Assembly: GCA_965279375.1 (NCBI GenBank)
Contig: OZ257156.1
Coordinates: 1,248,001-1,312,000 of the forward strand
Length of the DNA stretch: 64,000 nt
Source: Gemmatimonas sp.
GTDB taxonomy: Bacteria; Gemmatimonadota; Gemmatimonadetes; Gemmatimonadales; Gemmatimonadaceae
Reading direction: 5' to 3'
The notes under the pieces are model-generated. The model saw only the letters and a program-made list of their open reading frames with translations. It did not search any database and had not been told where the DNA came from. Positions 4,250-57,889 of this stretch are shown here, piece after piece. A program made the translations under genes and the position numbers. Numbering within the stretch: the first letter of the stretch is position 1; every line of letters starts with the position of its first letter.

Positions 4250-4362
4250 GGCTAACTGTGCGTTGCTGCTGACAGGGCCTTCAAAGGTTGCGGCCAATTG
4301 CTCGCTGCGCTCGCTGGCCGCAACTTGTTGAAGGGCCCTGCAGCAGAACGCGAACGTTAGAT
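4250..4362 (+). repeat. attC site (family A)
   Basis: GGCTAAC...GTTAGAT. Confidence 0.93.
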
Positions 4363-5036
4363 GGTCCCATCGCGCGACGGCAACGGAGCGAGGCCCGCTC
4401 GGATCATTGGGGTTCGCCCGACGTCAGGGCGGCATCCGGTGCGCGGCCCCTCGTGCGCGCCGCGTGACGTCTGCGAGGACACGTTCAGCCATTGTGTGCG
4501 TACTCGTCGGCACATCGAACGATGACCTGCAGGACGCGCGCAGGTGGACATCACCGTCGTGCTCGTGGTCGCGGTCGTGGCGTGAGGCGAACGCGGCGCG
4601 CCGTTCAATCGTCCGAAGTCAATACATGTCGGTGGTCGGGAAGGGCCGCCGCACGGTCCTGGCACGCGATGCCGCGGCTGATCTGCGTCCATCGCTCCGT
4701 CGCTTTGTCGCGTTGCGCGTTGCCGTGCCTCGCGACACGATCGCGAGAGTCCGTGCCGCACCGCTGCATCAGCCGCTGGCGTGGTCGCACCAGACCACCG
4801 CAGTCGACGACAACGCGCGGCCCGCGCGACGGCGTCGATCCTCGCGTGGGGCGCGGATGCAGCGCGTGTGCCGGTTGCCGGTGACCGGTCTTGGCCGGGC
4901 GAGCCCCGCCGGCCCCGCGCGGCGTCGCGTGGCGTCAAGGGGTTGCCGGTCACTGCGCGCGTCACCCCAGCCCTGGCCCACGCGCGAGGCGCGGGCGACG
5001 AACAGGGTCGTGGACGCTCACAACAGCCCTGGGACC
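4363..5036. other. Gene-less cassette, copy 1 (candidate ncRNA/regulatory)
   Basis: no credible CDS; motifs shared with 8860-9527 and 35621-36323. Confidence 0.6.
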
Positions 5037-5147
5037 ATCTAACAATGCGTTGCTGTTGTCGGCGGTTCCAAGGATGGCGGCCTTGCTCCCTTCGGTCGCC
5101 GGCCGCAACCTATGGAAGGCCGCCGCAACAGAACGCCATCGTTAGGT
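5037..5147 (+). repeat. attC site (family A variant)
   Basis: ATCTAAC...GTTAGGT. Confidence 0.92.
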
Positions 5148-6533: not shown

Positions 6534-7520
6534 CTACCACCGATTGACGAGCATCTCCGCGATGCGCCCGATGGTGAGCTCGAGCTGCGCAAAGTCGCCG
6601 CGGTTCGCATTGGTGTACACGCTGATGACCAGCACGCCGCCGGGATAGACGATGACACCGACATCGCTGCCGGAGGCCGGTGAAGCGTCGCCCGTCTTGT
6701 GGGCGATGCGCACATCCGAACGATAACGCAGCGTGGCTGGCAATCGTGTGGTGTAGAATTGCCCGAACAGGTGGTTCATCATGGCCGTGCTGCTGGCGCG
6801 ATTCGCGTACTTCGCGGTGTAGATGCCTTCGAGCAGCGTCGTCATCTCGCGCGCGGTGGTGCGACCCAGCCACGTCGTGGAGTCCACGGCATACGCGAAA
6901 CGCCTAGCGGCGAGATCAGCGGCGGAGATTCCAGTGACGGGTGGCGCCCGGAATATCTGAACATTGCTCCACGTCGCACGCTCCGGCGAGGCCGCCGCCG
7001 CGAGATTGCGGAAGAACTGCGAAATGGTCTGCACGAGTCGCGTCTCACGGAACCCAAGCTCGCGCAACATGCCGTTGATGCGGTCCATCCCCAGCTTGAC
7101 GATCAGCGCTTCGGTGGCCGTGTTGTCGCTGGTGATGATCATCTGGTCGATCAGGTCCCGGTACGTCACGGTGGCGCCCGGCGTGAGACGTTTGAGCAGC
7201 CCCGTGCCGCCACGCATGTCCTCTTCGCGCAGCGTGATCCGCTCATCCAAGTTGAGTCGCCCGGCTTCGGCATCCCGGTACGCCAGCAGCATGATCGGAA
7301 TCTTGATCGTGCTCATGGTGTTCATCGGCTGGTCGGCGCGTACGTCCACCGTGCGTCCCGAGCCGAGATGGAGGGCCGAGATGCTTGTCGTCGCCGACAG
7401 GAGGTCGAGCTGGCGGCGAATCTCCGCGGTGATGAGCGTGTCGGCGGTGCGCGCCGCCATTTGTGCCCACGAGGTACGCGCGGACAGCAGCATCAACAGG
7501 GCGAGGACGATCGGGCGCAT
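6534..7520 (-). CDS. Secreted serine hydrolase, class A beta-lactamase-like fold; inverted in cassette
   Basis: signal peptide; STIK (SxxK), SDN and HKTG motifs. Confidence 0.85.
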   Translation of the reverse strand: MRPIVLALLMLLSARTSWAQMAARTADTLITAEIRRQLDLLSATTSISALHLGSGRTVDVRADQPMNTMSTIKIPIMLLAYRDAEAGRLNLDERITLREEDMRGGTGLLKRLTPGATVTYRDLIDQMIITSDNTATEALIVKLGMDRINGMLRELGFRETRLVQTISQFFRNLAAAASPERATWSNVQIFRAPPVTGISAADLAARRFAYAVDSTTWLGRTTAREMTTLLEGIYTAKYANRASSTAMMNHLFGQFYTTRLPATLRYRSDVRIAHKTGDASPASGSDVGVIVYPGGVLVISVYTNANRGDFAQLELTIGRIAEMLVNRW

Positions 7521-7643
7521 GGGGCAGCGAGATGGAGGAGTGGGTGTCAAACGCGTGCACGCGCCGAACTTGCACTCTCCAAAAGCGTTGGGCTAGCCGT
7601 GGCGCTCTCCTCGAGATCGCACCCGGAGGATTGCGGCAGGGCG

Positions 7644-8752: not shown

Positions 8753-8859
8753 CAGTGCGTTGCTGTTGACAGCGCCTTCAAGGAGTGCGGCCTATTGCTC
8801 GCTGCGCTCGCTGGCCGCATCCTGTTGAAGGGCGCTGCAACAGAACGCGCTCGTTAGAT
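8747..8859 (+). repeat. attC site (family A)
   Basis: GCCTAAC...GTTAGAT. Confidence 0.93.
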
Positions 8860-9527
8860 GGTCCCACCGTGCGACGGCGATGAAGCGAGGCCCGCTCGGA
8901 TCATTGGGGTTCGCCCGACGTCACGGCGACATGCGGTGCGCTGGAAGTCGCGCAGGCCGTCTGACCACCGCGCGAATGCGTTCGCCGGGCGAGAGTGTGC
9001 CCACTAGTGAATCGGAAACGGTGCTCGAGCGGGTGCGCAGGTGTGTCTCACTCTCGTGGTCGTCCAAGTCGCGGTGCTGGTCGTGGCGTGATGCGAACGC
9101 GGCGCGCATCTCGCTCGTCGGAATCCGGCGCCTACCGGTGATCGGGCCTGATCGCGACAAGGTCGCGGCACGCGGCGGGGCCGCCGATGCTGTCTACCAG
9201 TTCGAGACACTTGATGTCGCGGCTCTCGCCCGATCGTCGCGCGCGTGGACGCGTCATGTCCGTGCGACCGCCGCCAACGTGGTCGAGCAGAACCAACACA
9301 CACGGCGACCACACGTGGCCTGCGAGCCGGCATCGCTCATCGCGTGCGACGCGGCTGCGACTCGTGGGCCGGTTGCCGGCCTTGGCCGGGCGAGCCCCGC
9401 CGGTGCCTCGCCGTACCGAGTGGCGTCAAGGTGTTTCCGGTCACTGCGCGCGTCTGGCGACGGTTGCTGCAGAGGCGAGGCGCGGGCGAAGGAGGCAGTC
9501 GTCGCTACTTACAACACTGCTGGGACC
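8860..9527. other. Gene-less cassette, copy 2
   Basis: ends homologous to 4363-5036, centre diverged. Confidence 0.6.
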
Positions 9528-9639
9528 ATCTAACAAAGCGTTGCTGTTGTCGGCGGCATCACGGAGTGCGGCCATTGCTCCCTGCGGTCGCTGGCCGCAT
9601 CCTTTGATGAGCCGCCGCAACAGAACGCAATCGTTAGGT
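9528..9639 (+). repeat. attC site (family A variant)
   Basis: ATCTAAC...GTTAGGT. Confidence 0.92.
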
Positions 9640-9671
9640 GGCCCTCCAACCCATTGCTCGGAAGCCTTGAG

Positions 9672-10226
9672 ATGGAAAGCTGGCCTGAGCCACGCCGCAT
9701 CTTTCTGCACACATACAACTCACTAGTTCATCTGGCCGAGACAGTTGAGCATGGTCTTGTTGGCGTGCCCGAGAACGGCGCTGGGTCTGCGAGTAAGGCC
9801 AATCGGCTCCAGATTGATGACTGGGTACTGCTCCGCGTGACAGACCCGCTCTATCGCCCCGACCACCTAGTAATCGCGTCCCCTCTCCGAGTAATCGGAG
9901 CCCCCTTCCGGCAATCGCGGGAACCGCGAGATGCCCCGCGTTGGCCGGACCTCCTGTGGAAAGAGGAGAGGGAAGCAGGTGTCTCTCGCTACGGCTTTCG
10001 GATTCCGGTAACGCATGTTGGCACGCCGTTTCGGCAGCTGCAAATCGCCTTTGAAGATCTCGGGAATAGCGGTATCAAGGGACGGAATCGGAAGCTTCTA
10101 GAAGTCCCGAATCAGTGGGGGATCAAGTTCGTATCCAATGTGCTGGATGCGCGCTTCGAGATCGTACGCGTTCTCGATCTGTTGAGTCGCTTCTCGAAGG
10201 ACGCAGCCGGTACCGAGAACGGATGA
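9672..10226 (+). CDS. Hypothetical protein, possible EVE/PUA-like domain
   Basis: GLVGV...RLQIDDWVLL pattern; identical copy at 36477. Confidence 0.6.
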   Translation: MESWPEPRRIFLHTYNSLVHLAETVEHGLVGVPENGAGSASKANRLQIDDWVLLRVTDPLYRPDHLVIASPLRVIGAPFRQSREPRDAPRWPDLLWKEEREAGVSRYGFRIPVTHVGTPFRQLQIAFEDLGNSGIKGRNRKLLEVPNQWGIKFVSNVLDARFEIVRVLDLLSRFSKDAAGTENG

Positions 10227-10411
10227 GTGCCCTACGTGTTGTCTGGTCGACCTCGGAGATGAATCAGCTATCGTGATAGGCTCGCCGGCGAGACCTAGTT
10301 CTGCACGCAGGTATTGCTGATCGGGCCCGTGTTCGTAACATCCCTGACGGCGCTGCATTTCCCGTTCGCGCGGGAACAGCTTCATCTGCGATTCCGTAGC
10401 GGGGGAGGGCC

Positions 10412-10521
10412 ACCTAACCTTGCGTTGCGGCAGACAGGGCCTTCACGGATTGCTCCCTGTTCGCTGCGCTCACTGGTCGCATCCTATTGAAGGGCCCTGC
10501 TGCCGAACGCGCTCGTTAGAT
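10412..10521 (+). repeat. attC site (family A)
   Basis: ACCTAAC...GTTAGAT. Confidence 0.93.
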
Positions 10522-17057: not shown

Positions 17058-17321
17058 ATGCCCGATGCCGCCACGACCACGCTCTCATCCAAGGGCCAAG
17101 TCGTCATTCCCGAAGCCATCCGCGAGCGCCTCGGTCTGAAGACGGGTGCCCAGTTCGTCGTCGTGGCCGATCGCGACGTCGTGATTCTCAAAGTGTTGGA
17201 GGCCCCGGCGCTGTCCGAGTTTGCGGCGCTGACGGCGCAGGCGCGTCGCGTCGCAAAGGCGAGTCGTCTCAAGCCGGCCGACGTCCCCCGGGCGATCGCG
17301 AAGGTACGCCGCTCGAAGTGA
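17058..17321 (+). CDS. AbrB/MazE/SpoVT-family antitoxin
   Basis: LSSKGQVVIPEAIRERLGL. Confidence 0.9.
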   Translation: MPDAATTTLSSKGQVVIPEAIRERLGLKTGAQFVVVADRDVVILKVLEAPALSEFAALTAQARRVAKASRLKPADVPRAIAKVRRSK

Positions 17322-17740
17322 ACGTCGTCCTCGATACGAACGTCCTGGTTTCGGGGCTCCTCTTCGGTGGCGTACCCGGGCGCATCCTCACCGCGTGGAA
17401 CGCAGGGCGTGTCACCCTCGTGCTGTCGCCGCCGATCCTCGACGAGTATCGCCGGGTGGGTCTCGAGCTCGCGAAGGGACGGGCGCCCCTCATTGAGGCG
17501 CTCGATGCCCTCCTCGCCATGCTCACCGTCCACGCGACGCTCGTGGACGCGCCCGCGTTGGCCACGCGCGTGAGTGAGGATCCCGACGACGACATGTTCC
17601 TCGCCGCCGCACTCGCCGCGCACGCGCGCCTCATTGTGTCCGGTGACAAGCACCTGCTGCGCGTGTCGGGTTGGGCGGGGATCGAGGTGGTGAAAGCGCG
17701 CACGTTCGTCGATCGCTATCTCACCCCGAGTGACGCGTAG
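17318..17740 (+). CDS. PIN-domain (VapC-like) toxin
   Basis: VVLDTNVLVS, DPDDD.FL, IVSGDKHLL; overlaps antitoxin stop. Confidence 0.9.
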   Translation: MNVVLDTNVLVSGLLFGGVPGRILTAWNAGRVTLVLSPPILDEYRRVGLELAKGRAPLIEALDALLAMLTVHATLVDAPALATRVSEDPDDDMFLAAALAAHARLIVSGDKHLLRVSGWAGIEVVKARTFVDRYLTPSDA

Positions 17741-35501: not shown

Positions 35502-35620
35502 ACCTAACCTCGCGTTGGTGCAGTCGGCCGCGCAACGGTGCGCCGTGTAACTGCGGCGCTGGCGCGCCTCCGTTCACGGCTGCCTATTTGAGCGGCCGCA
35601 GCACAACGCAATCGTTAGAT
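35502..35620 (+). repeat. attC site (family B)
   Basis: ACCTAAC...GTTAGAT. Confidence 0.93.
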
Positions 35621-36323
35621 AGTCCCACCGCACGACACCGCACACGCAGGCTCCGCTCGGGGTGTCTGTGTTCGCCCGATGCGTCGACGGCGCGCGGTGC
35701 GCGTCGATCGCCCCGCGCCGGCAAGACCGCGCCGCAGCGGTTGGCCATCGTGCGTGGCCCCGTGGGTTGATGGTGGCGCGGGGTTGCGTGCGTGCGCGCT
35801 GACCGCGTCGTCGCGTGGTCGCCGATGTCGGGATCGTGGTGGCACGTCGCGTCGGCGTCGGTCAACGCGAGGGAACGTGCATGTCGCTGCGGCGCGTCCT
35901 CGCGGGCACCACCCCGGCGGAGGTGGCCGATGTACACGTCGGGTGCGCAGGGCTTCCGGCGTGCACGTCGTCGCGTCGGGGCTCGAGTGCGTTTCATGCA
36001 TCGCGTGCGTGCGCGCGCATTGCGTAATCGCGCGAGTGCGCGAGTGCGAGTGCGCGTGGGCGTGATGGCGCGTGGGCGTGATGGCGCGTGGGCGTGATGG
36101 CGCGTGGGCCGGGGACCAGCGGGTTCGGCGAACGGAGCGCCGTCGCCTGCGCGCAACGCCGTGCGCCACGCCAGCGCCGCCAGGCGAGCCCCGCCGGCGC
36201 CGCGTGGGTCCGGGCCGCCTCGTGTCCATGCCGCGCGGCCGTTGTGCGCGTCGCTCGCGCTGGCCCACGGGCGAGGCGCGGGCGACGGCGGACGGCGCGT
36301 CCGCTTACAAACGCCCTGGGACT
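35621..36323. other. Gene-less cassette, copy 3 (most diverged)
   Basis: shares end motifs with copies 1 and 2; internal tandem repeat. Confidence 0.6.
36052..36109. repeat. Tandem repeat, 3.6 x GCGCGTGGGCGTGATG (16 bp)
   Basis: read directly. Confidence 0.9.
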
Positions 36324-36444
36324 ATCTAACCTTGCGTTGGTGCTGACGGCCGCTCAGCGGTGCGCCGTGTAACGTCGCGGGCTGGCGCCCGCTCGTTCAC
36401 GGCTTCCTATTCTGAGCGGCCGCAGCACAACGCTATCGTTAGGT
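36324..36444 (+). repeat. attC site (family B)
   Basis: ATCTAAC...GTTAGGT. Confidence 0.93.
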
Positions 36445-36476
36445 GGCCCTCCAACCCATTGCTCGGAAGCCTTGAG

Positions 36477-37031
36477 ATGGAAAGCTGGCCTGAGCCACGC
36501 CGCATCTTTCTGCACACATACAACTCACTAGTTCATCTGGCCGAGACAGTTGAGCATGGTCTTGTTGGCGTGCCCGAGAACGGCGCTGGGTCTGCGAGTA
36601 AGGCCAATCGGCTCCAGATTGATGACTGGGTACTGCTCCGCGTGACAGACCCGCTCTATCGCCCCGACCACCTAGTAATCGCGTCCCCTCTCCGAGTAAT
36701 CGGAGCCCCCTTCCGGCAATCGCGGGAACCGCGAGATGCCCCGCGTTGGCCGGACCTCCTGTGGAAAGAGGAGAGGGAAGCAGGTGTCTCTCGCTACGGC
36801 TTTCGGATTCCGGTAACGCATGTTGGCACGCCGTTTCGGCAGCTGCAAATCGCCTTTGAAGATCTCGGGAATAGCGGTATCAAGGGACGGAATCGGAAGC
36901 TTCTAGAAGTCCCGAATCAGTGGGGGATCAAGTTCGTATCCAATGTGCTGGATGCGCGCTTCGAGATCGTACGCGTTCTCGATCTGTTGAGTCGCTTCTC
37001 GAAGGACGCAGCCGGTACCGAGAACGGATGA
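36477..37031 (+). CDS. EVE/PUA-like hypothetical protein, duplicate of 9672
   Basis: identical translation. Confidence 0.6.
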   Translation: MESWPEPRRIFLHTYNSLVHLAETVEHGLVGVPENGAGSASKANRLQIDDWVLLRVTDPLYRPDHLVIASPLRVIGAPFRQSREPRDAPRWPDLLWKEEREAGVSRYGFRIPVTHVGTPFRQLQIAFEDLGNSGIKGRNRKLLEVPNQWGIKFVSNVLDARFEIVRVLDLLSRFSKDAAGTENG

Positions 37032-37216
37032 GTGCCCTACGTGTTGTCTGGTCGACCTCGGAGATGAATCAGCTATCGTGATAGGCTCGCCGGCGAGACC
37101 TAGTTCTGCACGCAGGTATTGCTGATCGGGCCCGTGTTCGTAACATCCCTGACGGCGCTGCATTTCCCGTTCGCGCGGGAACAGCTTCATCTGCGATTCC
37201 GTAGCGGGGGAGGGCC

Positions 37217-37326
37217 ACCTAACCTTGCGTTGCGGCAGACAGGGCCTTCACGGATTGCTCCCTGTTCGCTGCGCTCACTGGTCGCATCCTATTGAAGGGC
37301 CCTGCTGCCGAACGCGCTCGTTAGAG
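37217..37326 (+). repeat. attC site (family A)
   Basis: ACCTAAC...GTTAGAG. Confidence 0.93.
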
Positions 37327-38400: not shown

Positions 38401-38637
38401 ATGCCCATGACGCCAGCCGACCTCCTCCAGCGTATCACGATCCGCCCCGAGCAATGCGGGGGCCGTCCGTGCATTCGGGGGATGCGGATCCGGGTGATCG
38501 ACGTCCTGGAGCTGTTAGCCGCCGGCGACTCGCAGGCACAAATCCTTGAGGACTATCCGTATCTCGAGGCGGACGATATCGCCGCGTGCCTGCTCTACGC
38601 GGCGCGGCGGTTGAACCATCCGAACGTCGCGGCGTAG
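38401..38637 (+). CDS. DUF433 antitoxin
   Basis: CGGRPCIRGMRIRV, YPYLEADDI. Confidence 0.92.
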   Translation: MPMTPADLLQRITIRPEQCGGRPCIRGMRIRVIDVLELLAAGDSQAQILEDYPYLEADDIAACLLYAARRLNHPNVAA

Positions 38638-38643
38638 CCGGTG

Positions 38644-39009
38644 ATGGCGGACGCGCCGACGTCCGGGATCGTCTGGGTCGACGCGCAATTGCCGCCGGCA
38701 CTGGCCCGGTGGCTTCGGCAGACCCATGGGGTGGCCGCGTGGCACGTCGAGGAGGTCGAGCAGCTCGACGCGGATGATCCGGCGATCTTCGCCGCGGCCC
38801 GGAGTGGCCGGGCCGCGATCGTGGTGACGAAGGATGACGATTTTGTCGAGCTGGTCGAGCGACTCGGTCCCCCGCCACAAGTCGTGTGGGTCACGTGTGG
38901 GAACATCAAGAACGCTGAGTTGCGGGCGATCGTCCTGGAGGCCTGGCCGCGGGTGGCGGAACTGCTCGCGAGTGGCGAGCCGTTGGTGGAACTCGGGCGT
39001 CGCACGTAG
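38644..39009 (+). CDS. DUF5615 PIN-like toxin
   Basis: WVDAQLPP, VTKDDDF, GN. Confidence 0.88.
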   Translation: MADAPTSGIVWVDAQLPPALARWLRQTHGVAAWHVEEVEQLDADDPAIFAAARSGRAAIVVTKDDDFVELVERLGPPPQVVWVTCGNIKNAELRAIVLEAWPRVAELLASGEPLVELGRRT

Positions 39010-41190: not shown

Positions 41191-41484
41191 GTGATACGCA
41201 CCTTTGCCGATCTGGCCACCGAAGACCTGTTCAATGGCGTCGATAGCCGGCGGGCGCGGCAGGCGTGTCCGAACACGCTCTGGGCGGTGGTCGCGCGGAA
41301 GCTGACGCAGCTCAATCGCGTGCGCGAACTCCGAGAGCTGGCCATTCCACCCGGCAACCGGCTGGAAGCGCTCAAGGGATCACGGCGCGGGCAGCACAGT
41401 ATCCGCATCAACGATCAGTACCGGATCTGCTTCCGGTGGGAGGAAGGCCATGCCGACGCGGTCGAAGTCACGGACTACCACTAA
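41191..41484 (+). CDS. higB: HigB-like (RelE/ParE) toxin
   Basis: PPGNRLEALKG, HSIRINDQYRICFRW, DYH. Confidence 0.93.
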   Translation: MIRTFADLATEDLFNGVDSRRARQACPNTLWAVVARKLTQLNRVRELRELAIPPGNRLEALKGSRRGQHSIRINDQYRICFRWEEGHADAVEVTDYH

Positions 41485-41497
41485 GTCGACGCCGTTG

Positions 41498-41812
41498 GTG
41501 CAGCGCCGCTTGCCCACGCATCGGCCCCCGACGCATCCCGGCGAGATGCTGCTCGAGGAATTCCTCAAGCCGCTCGGGCTGTCGCAGTCCGCGTTCGCCC
41601 TGCAGCTCGGCGTGTCGTTTCCGCGCCTGAACGAGGTGATCCATGCGAAGCGCAGCGTCACGCCGGATACGGCGTTGCGGCTCGCCCAGGTCACGGGCAT
41701 GAGCGCGGACTTCTGGCTCGGGCTCCAGCAGGACTGGGATCTGTGGCATGCGCTGCGCTCGAAGGAGGCCGCCCAGATCGCGCGCCTCAAGCCTTTGTCG
41801 CGCGCGAGTTAG
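41498..41812 (+). CDS. higA: HigA-family antitoxin
   Basis: HPGEMLLEEFL, DTALRL, FWLGLQ. Confidence 0.93.
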   Translation: MQRRLPTHRPPTHPGEMLLEEFLKPLGLSQSAFALQLGVSFPRLNEVIHAKRSVTPDTALRLAQVTGMSADFWLGLQQDWDLWHALRSKEAAQIARLKPLSRAS

Positions 41813-44134: not shown

Positions 44135-44473
44135 GTGACCGACGCGATCGACGCGCTGCTGGCCAGCGCCACCGGGTTCGACTGGGATGCGGGGAACGCC
44201 CCCAAGGTGCAGGCGCGCCACCAAGTGGATCCCGGCGAGTGTGAGCAGGCGTTCTTCGTGGATCCCTTCATTGTGGCCGCCGATGCGACGCACTCGCAGC
44301 GCGAAGCCCGCTGGTACGCGCTCGGCCGGACCTTCGCGAATCGATACCTGTATCTCGTCTTTACGATGCGCGGATCGCTGATTCGAGTGATCAGCGCGCG
44401 TCCCATGAACCGGAAGGAGCGCCGAGTCTATGTCCAAACCCAAGCACGTGAAGAAGGCGATCCCGCGCGCTAA
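44135..44473 (+). CDS. brnT: BrnT-family toxin
   Basis: GFDWD.GN, HS..E.R, IRVISAR. Confidence 0.9.
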   Translation: MTDAIDALLASATGFDWDAGNAPKVQARHQVDPGECEQAFFVDPFIVAADATHSQREARWYALGRTFANRYLYLVFTMRGSLIRVISARPMNRKERRVYVQTQAREEGDPAR

Positions 44474-57261: not shown

Positions 57262-57576
57262 GTGACCTTTGATTGGGATCCCGCGAAGAGCGACCAGAAC
57301 CTCGCCGAGCGTGGCTTCGACTTTGCGTTCGCTGCACTGATCTTCGCGCAGCCGTACGTGGAGTTCGATGATGCCCGTCGTGACTATGGCGAGCGGCGCC
57401 TCGTCGCGCTCGGGCGGGCCGATGGGATTCCACTCACGGTCGTCTTCACCGATCGCCTGTCCCCAACCGGGACCGTCGTCCGCCGCGTGATCAGTGCGCG
57501 GCTCAGCAACCGCAAGGAGCGTCGCCGTTATGCCGAAAGCCTCGAAGCCATCGCCCCGGAAGACGAGCGCCCGTAA
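57262..57576 (+). CDS. brnT: BrnT-family toxin
   Basis: FDWDPAK..NL..RGFDF, YGE.R, RVISAR. Confidence 0.92.
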   Translation: MTFDWDPAKSDQNLAERGFDFAFAALIFAQPYVEFDDARRDYGERRLVALGRADGIPLTVVFTDRLSPTGTVVRRVISARLSNRKERRRYAESLEAIAPEDERP

Positions 57577-57889
57577 GCGCTCGGCTGTGCCCATCGTGCC
57601 GACGCAGGGGCGCGCGGATCTTGCGCGGCTGCGTCGCACGACGGATGCCGAGATTGCGCGGACCGCGCCGGACGAGTTGCGCGATCTGCCGGACGATTTC
57701 TGGCAGGGCGCGCGGGTCGTCACGCCCGTCGCGAAGGAGGCGATCTCCATTCGCTTGGATCACGATGTGATTGCGTGGTTCCGGGCGAGTGGACCGCGGT
57801 ATCAGTCGCGCATCAACGCGGTGCTGCGCAGCTACGTCGAACAGGTGGCCGCGCCGGTTCCCACCGCGAAGCGGAAGCGGGCGGTCTAA
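57530..57889 (+). CDS. brnA: BrnA-family antitoxin
   Basis: ISIRLD.DV..WFR..G..YQSRIN.VLR. Confidence 0.92.
   Translation: MPKASKPSPRKTSARKRSAVPIVPTQGRADLARLRRTTDAEIARTAPDELRDLPDDFWQGARVVTPVAKEAISIRLDHDVIAWFRASGPRYQSRINAVLRSYVEQVAAPVPTAKRKRAV

Follow-up and report, generated by a model that had tools for sequence, protein, structure and literature searches.

Three cassettes in the chromosomal integron array of a Gemmatimonas genome carry no gene, and the evidence supports them as one paralogous non-coding family with conserved blocks that are constrained at the nucleotide level. By alignment, a ~90-bp 5′ leader is shown to be common to these gene-less cassettes and to padded cassettes encoding the toxin-antitoxin pair BrnT-BrnA, and a common ~45-bp 3′ trailer is well supported. 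What is new here is this homology, in register, between gene-less ends and the non-coding pads of a BrnT-BrnA lineage, and the toxin-antitoxin link is the part worth following. Our tentative reading, with a probability of about 0.42, is that the gene-less cassettes are eroded descendants of a padded BrnT-BrnA cassette that keep DNA-level sites. The frame shared by gene-less and toxin-antitoxin cassettes joins two questions, the origin of gene-less cassettes and the formation of new ones (how cassettes arise de novo is for the most part unknown according to PMC5371416), and a larger sample of leaders could reveal the direction of change, i.e., an addiction module eroding versus an empty cassette gaining genes.

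Three cassettes without a gene in a chromosomal integron array

The window, i.e., the whole 64,000-nucleotide stretch of DNA analyzed (G000:C1:1248001-1312000), covers the opening part of a chromosomal integron array that spans 145 kb and 121 cassette intervals. Searching the genome with an attC profile of the array recovered 121 sites between 1.248 and 1.394 Mb, all on the + strand, and the array is linked to an integron integrase located ~1 kb upstream of the window (G000:C1:1246027-1246965, locus L001; TIGR02249, 384 bits against a cut-off of 265). Cassettes lie in comparable orientation in most sedentary integrons (PMC5371416), and among named records this attC type belongs mostly to Gemmatimonadaceae. 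The sign of the genome's GC skew changes to positive at about 1.2 Mb, which probably makes the top strand the leading one, so that the G+T excess of the gene-less cassettes would need no special cause. At the far array end (G000:C1:1361900-1393500), many attC sites lack the GTT core and carry GTG, GTC, or others, which suggests that old cassettes may be decaying there.

All three cassettes are on the + strand, bounded by attC sites with complementary ends, and run from the crossover GTT to the inverse core AAC exactly where the first-pass annotation had placed them: copy 1 at 4356..5043, copy 2 at 8853..9534, and copy 3 at 35614..36330 (682-717 bp; 68-74% G+C). This architecture shows ordinary integron cassettes, presumably mobilized by IntI, and their three dispersed positions and changed neighbors would fit such mobility. 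An unrelated run, X5, contains contigs that match copies 1 and 2 in part, at ~80-90% identity, with contig joints that are indistinguishable from attC repeats. The attC of copy 1 (5037..5147, +) is of a short subtype and is the closest in the array to that of copy 2 (9528..9639, +), while the attC of copy 3 (36324..36444, +) is of a long subtype, unlike the other two. Copies 1 and 2 align end to end at 69% identity (distance 0.39); the centre of copy 3, with a 16-bp tandem repeat of 3.6 copies (36052..36109, +), is unalignable with and unrelated to both (z 0.6-1.3). Hence, the "variable centre" previously ascribed to the family holds against copy 3 only.

That the three lack a credible gene, as first proposed, was borne out when codon and amino-acid usage, modeled on 2117 long ORFs from this genome, was turned into a coding score: the best scores of copies 1, 2, and 3 were -3.2, 6.0, and -0.6, against at least 14.4 in the remaining 103 of 106 delimited cassettes. 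Each of a further 15 cassette intervals holds a scoring ORF, leaving only these three of the 121 intervals in the array without a credible one, although long intervals could conceal missed attC sites. An open + frame is indeed kept in copies 1 and 2, stop-free over 226-228 codons in both, and could be taken for a fast-evolving Arg/Ala/Ser-rich protein. However, stop-free frames of 200 codons arise in 9-43% of shuffles, mismatches between the two copies are spread over the codon positions (54/57/62), and 13 of the 16 gaps in their alignment are not multiples of 3. The open frame holds 22 synonymous versus 90 non-synonymous codons (61 versus 33 in a coding control pair), none of the six frames shows a synonymous excess, and the dN/dS-type signal of a gene was looked for in copies 1 and 2 and not found. 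Further, one X5 contig aligns to a gene-less cassette with 11 gaps over 541 bp, Pfam returned no match for five candidate ORFs, and three protein searches with these frames found homologues from this genome only. The protein-coding reading is thus largely refuted, and we regard it as highly improbable.

Conserved blocks near both ends: DNA sites or an RNA fold

The shared 5′ and 3′ motifs reported initially are all present in the three cassettes. Within the leaders, three blocks occupy cassette positions 40-47, 57-66, and 82-89 in every copy, namely CCGCTCGG (4395-4402), GTTCGCCCGA (4412-4421), and CGGTGCGC (4437-4444) in copy 1 (leader 4356..4447), with counterparts at 8892-8899, 8909-8918, and 8934-8941 in copy 2 (leader 8853..8944) and at 35653-35660, 35670-35679, and 35695-35702 in copy 3 (leader 35614..35705), all on the + strand. 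The combination CCGCTCGG-N9-GTTCGCCCG occurs nowhere else in the 5.3-Mb genome at up to one mismatch. Toward the 3′ end, two 15-bp blocks on the + strand are invariant across the copies, M1 (4898..4912, 9389-9403, 36183-36197) and M2 (4984..4998, 9475-9489, 36271-36285), followed by CTYACAA (5017..5023, 9508-9514, 36304-36310, +) at a constant distance to the cassette end; counted from that end, M2 spans -60 to -46 and CTYACAA spans -27 to -21. The motif-to-end spacing of 131, 131, and 133 was confirmed. With base composition controlled, invariant columns cluster beyond chance at the 3′ end (P=1.5e-4) and the 5′ end (P=0.0016), and, with no codon-level selection seen, the nucleotide-level constraint argued for at the outset is upheld. 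Compared by eye with consensus patterns, the blocks were considered as ECF, RpoH, or LexA sites, a c-di-GMP riboswitch, a degenerate attC, or a TCGG/CCGA hairpin, and these readings were dropped because the fit was poor or the pairing inconsistent.

Such blocks could also arise in a functionless or selfish relic that persists by integrase copying, with patchy gene conversion leaving identical blocks. Mosaic signs are present: the last 66 bp of copy 1 are nearer to copy 3 (47/66 identical) than to copy 2 (38/66), copy 3 carries its different attC subtype, and both conversion and selfish spread have been raised for Vibrio non-coding cassettes (PMC1382264). However, among the 40 of 447 X5 differences listed, the 14 that fall within 9381-9520 avoid invariant columns (4 in 78 invariant versus 10 in 62 variable columns, P=0.045; one listed difference falls inside M2), three toxin-antitoxin lineages tend to retain the leader positions that the gene-less copies retain, and useless cassettes, it has been argued, are easily excised (10.1101/2023.11.21.568050). 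We therefore consider a relic improbable.

The first-pass annotation had favored a structured ncRNA or ssDNA element, which as a top-strand RNA would be closed by pairing of a 5′ block with M1. The paired 12-mers are as written (4409-4420 with 4896-4907; 8906-8917 with 9387-9398), the helix is included in the RNAalifold consensus and, with the centre omitted, is formed by copies 1 and 2, and folding z-scores, though modest, are -2.15, -1.28, and -2.54 (20 shuffles each). In addition, the X5 change 9387 C>T is readable as keeping the top-strand pair, 9485 G>A is readable as pair-keeping under an alternative pairing only, and sRNA-Xcc1 offers an integron-borne precedent. However, copy 3 loses 3 of the 12 pairs and compensates for none of them (consensus covariation term +2.57), and the full-length pairing probability of the helix is 0.00, 0.99, and 0.00 in copies 1, 2, and 3, so that closure by end pairing was not upheld. 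The longest 5′-3′ helices (13, 13, and 11 bp in copies 1-3) are equalled in 5%, 8%, and 49% of shuffles, and helices of at least 12 bp join the two ends in 14 of 106 cassettes. Two toxin-antitoxin cassettes with the 5′ motif and an intact 3′ end have helices of 9 and 11 bp (P 0.94 and 0.48). Six leaders fold at only -10 kcal/mol on either strand, no promoter or terminator is shared, and the Rfam check proposed earlier matched no known RNA family in the gene-less cassettes. Among 3 to 6 sequences, a comparison of low power, no covarying base pairs were found beyond the cassette termini.

As for the termini themselves, the 14-bp covarying repeats noted at first are present but not special, because terminal inverted repeats of 10-15 bp are generic here: at least 10 bp in 89 of 106 cassettes and at least 14 bp in 15 of 106, with 72 different starting 12-mers. 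The complementary ends of array cassettes thus have a median length of 12 bp, well over the 7-bp core, and differ in sequence from one cassette family to the next; they covary because each forms one half of the recombination site in the excised circle. A structured RNA drawn from three to six sequences is unsupported, and we hold it to be an improbable reading of these cassettes. Fixed spacing from the crossover points without covariation would fit DNA sites better than an RNA fold. A search limited to sigma-70 promoters found 0 sites in each of the three regions, which counts against a regulatory role.

Kinship with a BrnT-BrnA toxin-antitoxin cassette

A profile of the 5′ end identified one more array cassette, matching from base 1 without gaps (G000:C1:1340870-1341615; nhmmer E=2.7e-7), which encodes BrnT (Pfam 1.8e-27) and BrnA (Pfam 8.1e-9); because it lies 29 kb beyond the window, this kinship was invisible within it. 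Over leader positions 15-95, compared ungapped, copies 1-3 share 49, 45, and 44 of 81 positions with the BrnT-BrnA cassette (background median 21-23, sd about 4), about as many as copy 3 shares with copy 1 (47) and copy 2 (49). In genome G035 this leader lies ahead of brnT (E=1.3e-6, with a model built without G035), and in genome G449 ahead of BrnT-BrnA (E=4e-8). Regarding the trailer, the BrnT-BrnA cassette of the same array ranks first of 67 both over its final 130 bp and over the 60 non-coding bp at its very end, that of G035 ranks sixth and eighth, respectively, and 4 of 106 cassettes have ACAA at -28..-18, namely the three gene-less ones and the BrnT-BrnA cassette. Another BrnT-BrnA cassette (L157) has the trailer but no leader and shares a 13-bp in-register run with copy 2. 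Similarity to the attC of the toxin-antitoxin cassette was tried as an extra link and gave none that was clear (ranks 5, 11, and 51 of 103). In G449:C51 (L129), the BrnT-BrnA trailer is cut before attC by an apparent insertion sequence end.

The padded BrnT-BrnA cassettes measure 746 bp in this genome and 755 bp in G035, with leaders of 151-153 bp, versus compact cassettes of 579-589 bp with leaders of 40-50 bp in other Gemmatimonadota (sizes from the 6 of 10 loci examined for which both boundaries were found), and the pads are absent from BrnT-BrnA cassettes of other genera. Since the ends are homologous in register and the cassettes of other genera are compact, padded toxin-antitoxin and gene-less cassettes share one frame, with the homologous ends expected of a BrnT-BrnA cassette pseudogene. 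Columns invariant in gene-less leaders tend to be invariant in toxin-antitoxin leaders (24/19/11/24, P=0.027; P=0.08 with independent pairs), and the toxin-antitoxin leaders are conserved at 0.73 versus 0.65 and 0.66 versus 0.51 relative to four-fold sites. In other cassette families, the values for non-coding leaders fall above as well as below the four-fold-site line, and because these leaders diverge at about the four-fold-site rate, shared leaders alone indicate ancestry rather than function.

The family appears narrow, comprising one genome, partial matches in run X5, and end-only kin in three more genomes. The searches behind this were samples of mostly fragmented assemblies. At the DNA level, 60 relatives yielded no full cassette and only 27-55 bp matches in 11 of the 60, and plasmids yielded 0 matches to the family. 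In genome contigs, the 5′ pattern had 0 matches and the M1+M2 pattern a single one, in coding DNA without an attC; across 400 genomes of the phylum, M1+M2 gave 3 one-mismatch matches versus 4 in the reversed control. A 3′-end model run on 86 genomes of the genus returned only 4 weak matches (E 4e-4 to 9e-4), and an end-plus-attC pattern found 5 metagenome, 10 genome, and 3 viral contig loci, none of which fit the family profiles. No member was found among 37 loci with the same attC type, where the single low-scoring cassette holds a Cys-rich ORF. For the leader, a model found nothing outside the genus better than E 3e-4 in 150 genomes of the family, and a pattern search of 400 genomes of the order found G035 plus 4 others, the one inspected lying inside a gene.

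Erosion, capture, and the place among known cassettes

In our preferred reading, the genes of an ancestral padded BrnT-BrnA cassette would have eroded beyond recognition, with the centre now drifting through substitutions, small indels, and slippage and short blocks retained at fixed distances from both crossover points. These blocks, independent of any single long RNA fold, would probably serve a host or integron factor as sites on double-stranded DNA and might affect read-through or weak transcription into neighboring cassettes; this is the weakest step of the reading. Erosion is consistent with cassette lengths of 682-717 bp, close to the 746-755 bp of the toxin-antitoxin cassettes, and with a neutral-looking centre, in which gaps are mostly not multiples of 3, and degenerate gene-less cassettes have a precedent in cassette P3 (10.1101/2023.11.21.568050). 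Neither DNA nor protein profiles detected a BrnT or BrnA signal in the centre (in the best case, 8 of 150 shuffles were as good), and in centre similarity the two toxin-antitoxin cassettes rank 61 and 41 of 67. In simulations, a decayed operon was detected without fail when the distance was 0.3 but in 35% of runs when it was 0.5 and 5% when it was 0.7; the negative result thus has little power at this divergence, copies 1 and 2 alone differing by 0.39. With a matrix for the brnA tail, copy 2 was the best of 66 non-toxin-antitoxin cassettes, a faint signal (P=0.008) absent in copies 1 and 3 (P=0.8 and 0.72); the toxin-antitoxin cassettes rank 26 and 24 of 67 in the brnA-tail window. Erosion leaves the invariance of M1 and M2 and the origin of the pads unexplained.

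The pads, and the loss of M1 and M2 from BrnT-BrnA cassettes, would be accounted for if an older gene-less cassette had taken up a compact promoter-brnT-brnA core that replaced its middle, M1 and M2 included, and had kept both ends. Such a payload swap is rather unlikely in our estimation, and, if true, would offer a traceable example of a new integron cassette formed between conserved ends. It accounts for the unrelated centre and for M1/M2 being confined to gene-less copies, and the gain over compact BrnT-BrnA cassettes sits at both ends and matches the gene-less ends. However, unrelated centres arise within the family anyway, because the centre of copy 3 fails to align with those of copies 1 and 2, and at the simulated detection rates for distances of 0.5 and 0.7 a decayed operon would mostly be missed. 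Moreover, no junction signature was found, L157 with its trailer but no leader does not fit, and descent agrees with the comparable overall length and with copy 2's faint match to the brnA tail. The broader version, in which the gene-less cassettes are an empty frame that can be reused, with DNA sites conserved near both crossover points, and one of them captured a compact brnT-brnA operon, we judge unlikely. Overall, we place erosion ahead of capture, at about 55 to 35.

The neighbors of the gene-less cassettes provide a hint of function. A 786-bp cassette follows copy 2 (9633..10418, +) and encodes a 190-aa orphan ORF (9654-10226), and an identical second copy follows copy 3 (36438..37223, +); both thus follow a family member, though neither the centre nor the attC subtype is the same in copies 2 and 3. 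For one given pair, such a placement has a chance of 4e-4; this rises to ~0.01 across the 26 duplicate pairs and to about 0.1 when the preceding cassette may belong to any family. The placement hints that a gene-less cassette may have a cis effect on the next cassette. The 190-aa product has one homologue (46%) and is EVE-domain-like by atlas features (0.95), a lead only. PADLOC returned no match for 6 proteins neighboring the gene-less cassettes.

Earlier publications describe non-coding cassettes that form paralogous sets, cassettes that carry promoters, and a single sRNA cassette. The trio resembles the paralogous non-coding cassettes of Vibrio (the Boucher type) in being gene-less, attC-bounded, lineage-restricted, and present as several paralogues (here 3 copies) in one large array, with no translated match and no codon-type substitution pattern. 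However, the Vibrio cassettes are described as either >80% identical over their whole length or without a match, and as having no coding kin (PMC1382264), and such homologues were not found here: copies 1 and 2 are 69% identical, copy 3 matches them only at its ends, and a toxin-antitoxin cassette has both ends too. In Vibrionaceae and Treponema, gene-less cassettes that bear promoters are AT-rich with measured promoter activity (10.1101/2023.11.21.568050; PMC6557892), in contrast to the GC-rich trio, which has no sigma-70 consensus match. Likewise a non-coding integron cassette, sRNA-Xcc1 of Xanthomonas is a defined, regulated transcript on a cassette found in 13 species (PMC6557892; 10.1101/2025.06.18.660453); unlike it, the gene-less trio has neither an Rfam match nor a wide distribution. 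With the BrnT-BrnA cassettes (PF04365/PF14384) of sedentary integrons, whose role in such arrays is treated in PMC13108822, the trio shares leader, trailer, similar length, and the array itself, but has no recognizable brnT, brnA, toxin-antitoxin promoter, or operator. The literature covered on integron cassettes (also including PMC8876359, PMC2945992, and PMC8618304; most subscription journals and supplementary lists were outside its scope) contained neither gene-less cassettes of Gemmatimonadota nor any family without genes whose two ends recur in a toxin-antitoxin cassette.

Several further features of this genome were observed along the way. Many coding cassettes carry GC-rich non-coding leaders and trailers of 130-330 bp, unusual for compact cassettes (e.g., in the window at 10515, 11237, 12005, 38161, 39127, 41932, 46479, and 60766, among others), and these pads diverge roughly at the four-fold-site rate. 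Toxin-antitoxin cassettes in the window lie at 17058-17740, 38494-39009, 41191-41812, 44135-44473, and 57262-57889 and include MazE-PIN, DUF433-DUF5615, and HigB-HTH types and two more with BrnT. Eight attC-like sites occur outside the array, on G000:C1 near 110, 317, 674, 905-924, and 3705 kb, and the two at 317 kb flank a 1.3-kb two-ORF cassette. Finally, an inverted cassette in the window carries a class A beta-lactamase-like gene (6534-7550, -; PF13354, E 6e-53); run X5 covers parts of this cassette, and one in G444 (L056) resembles it in its end and ORF size.
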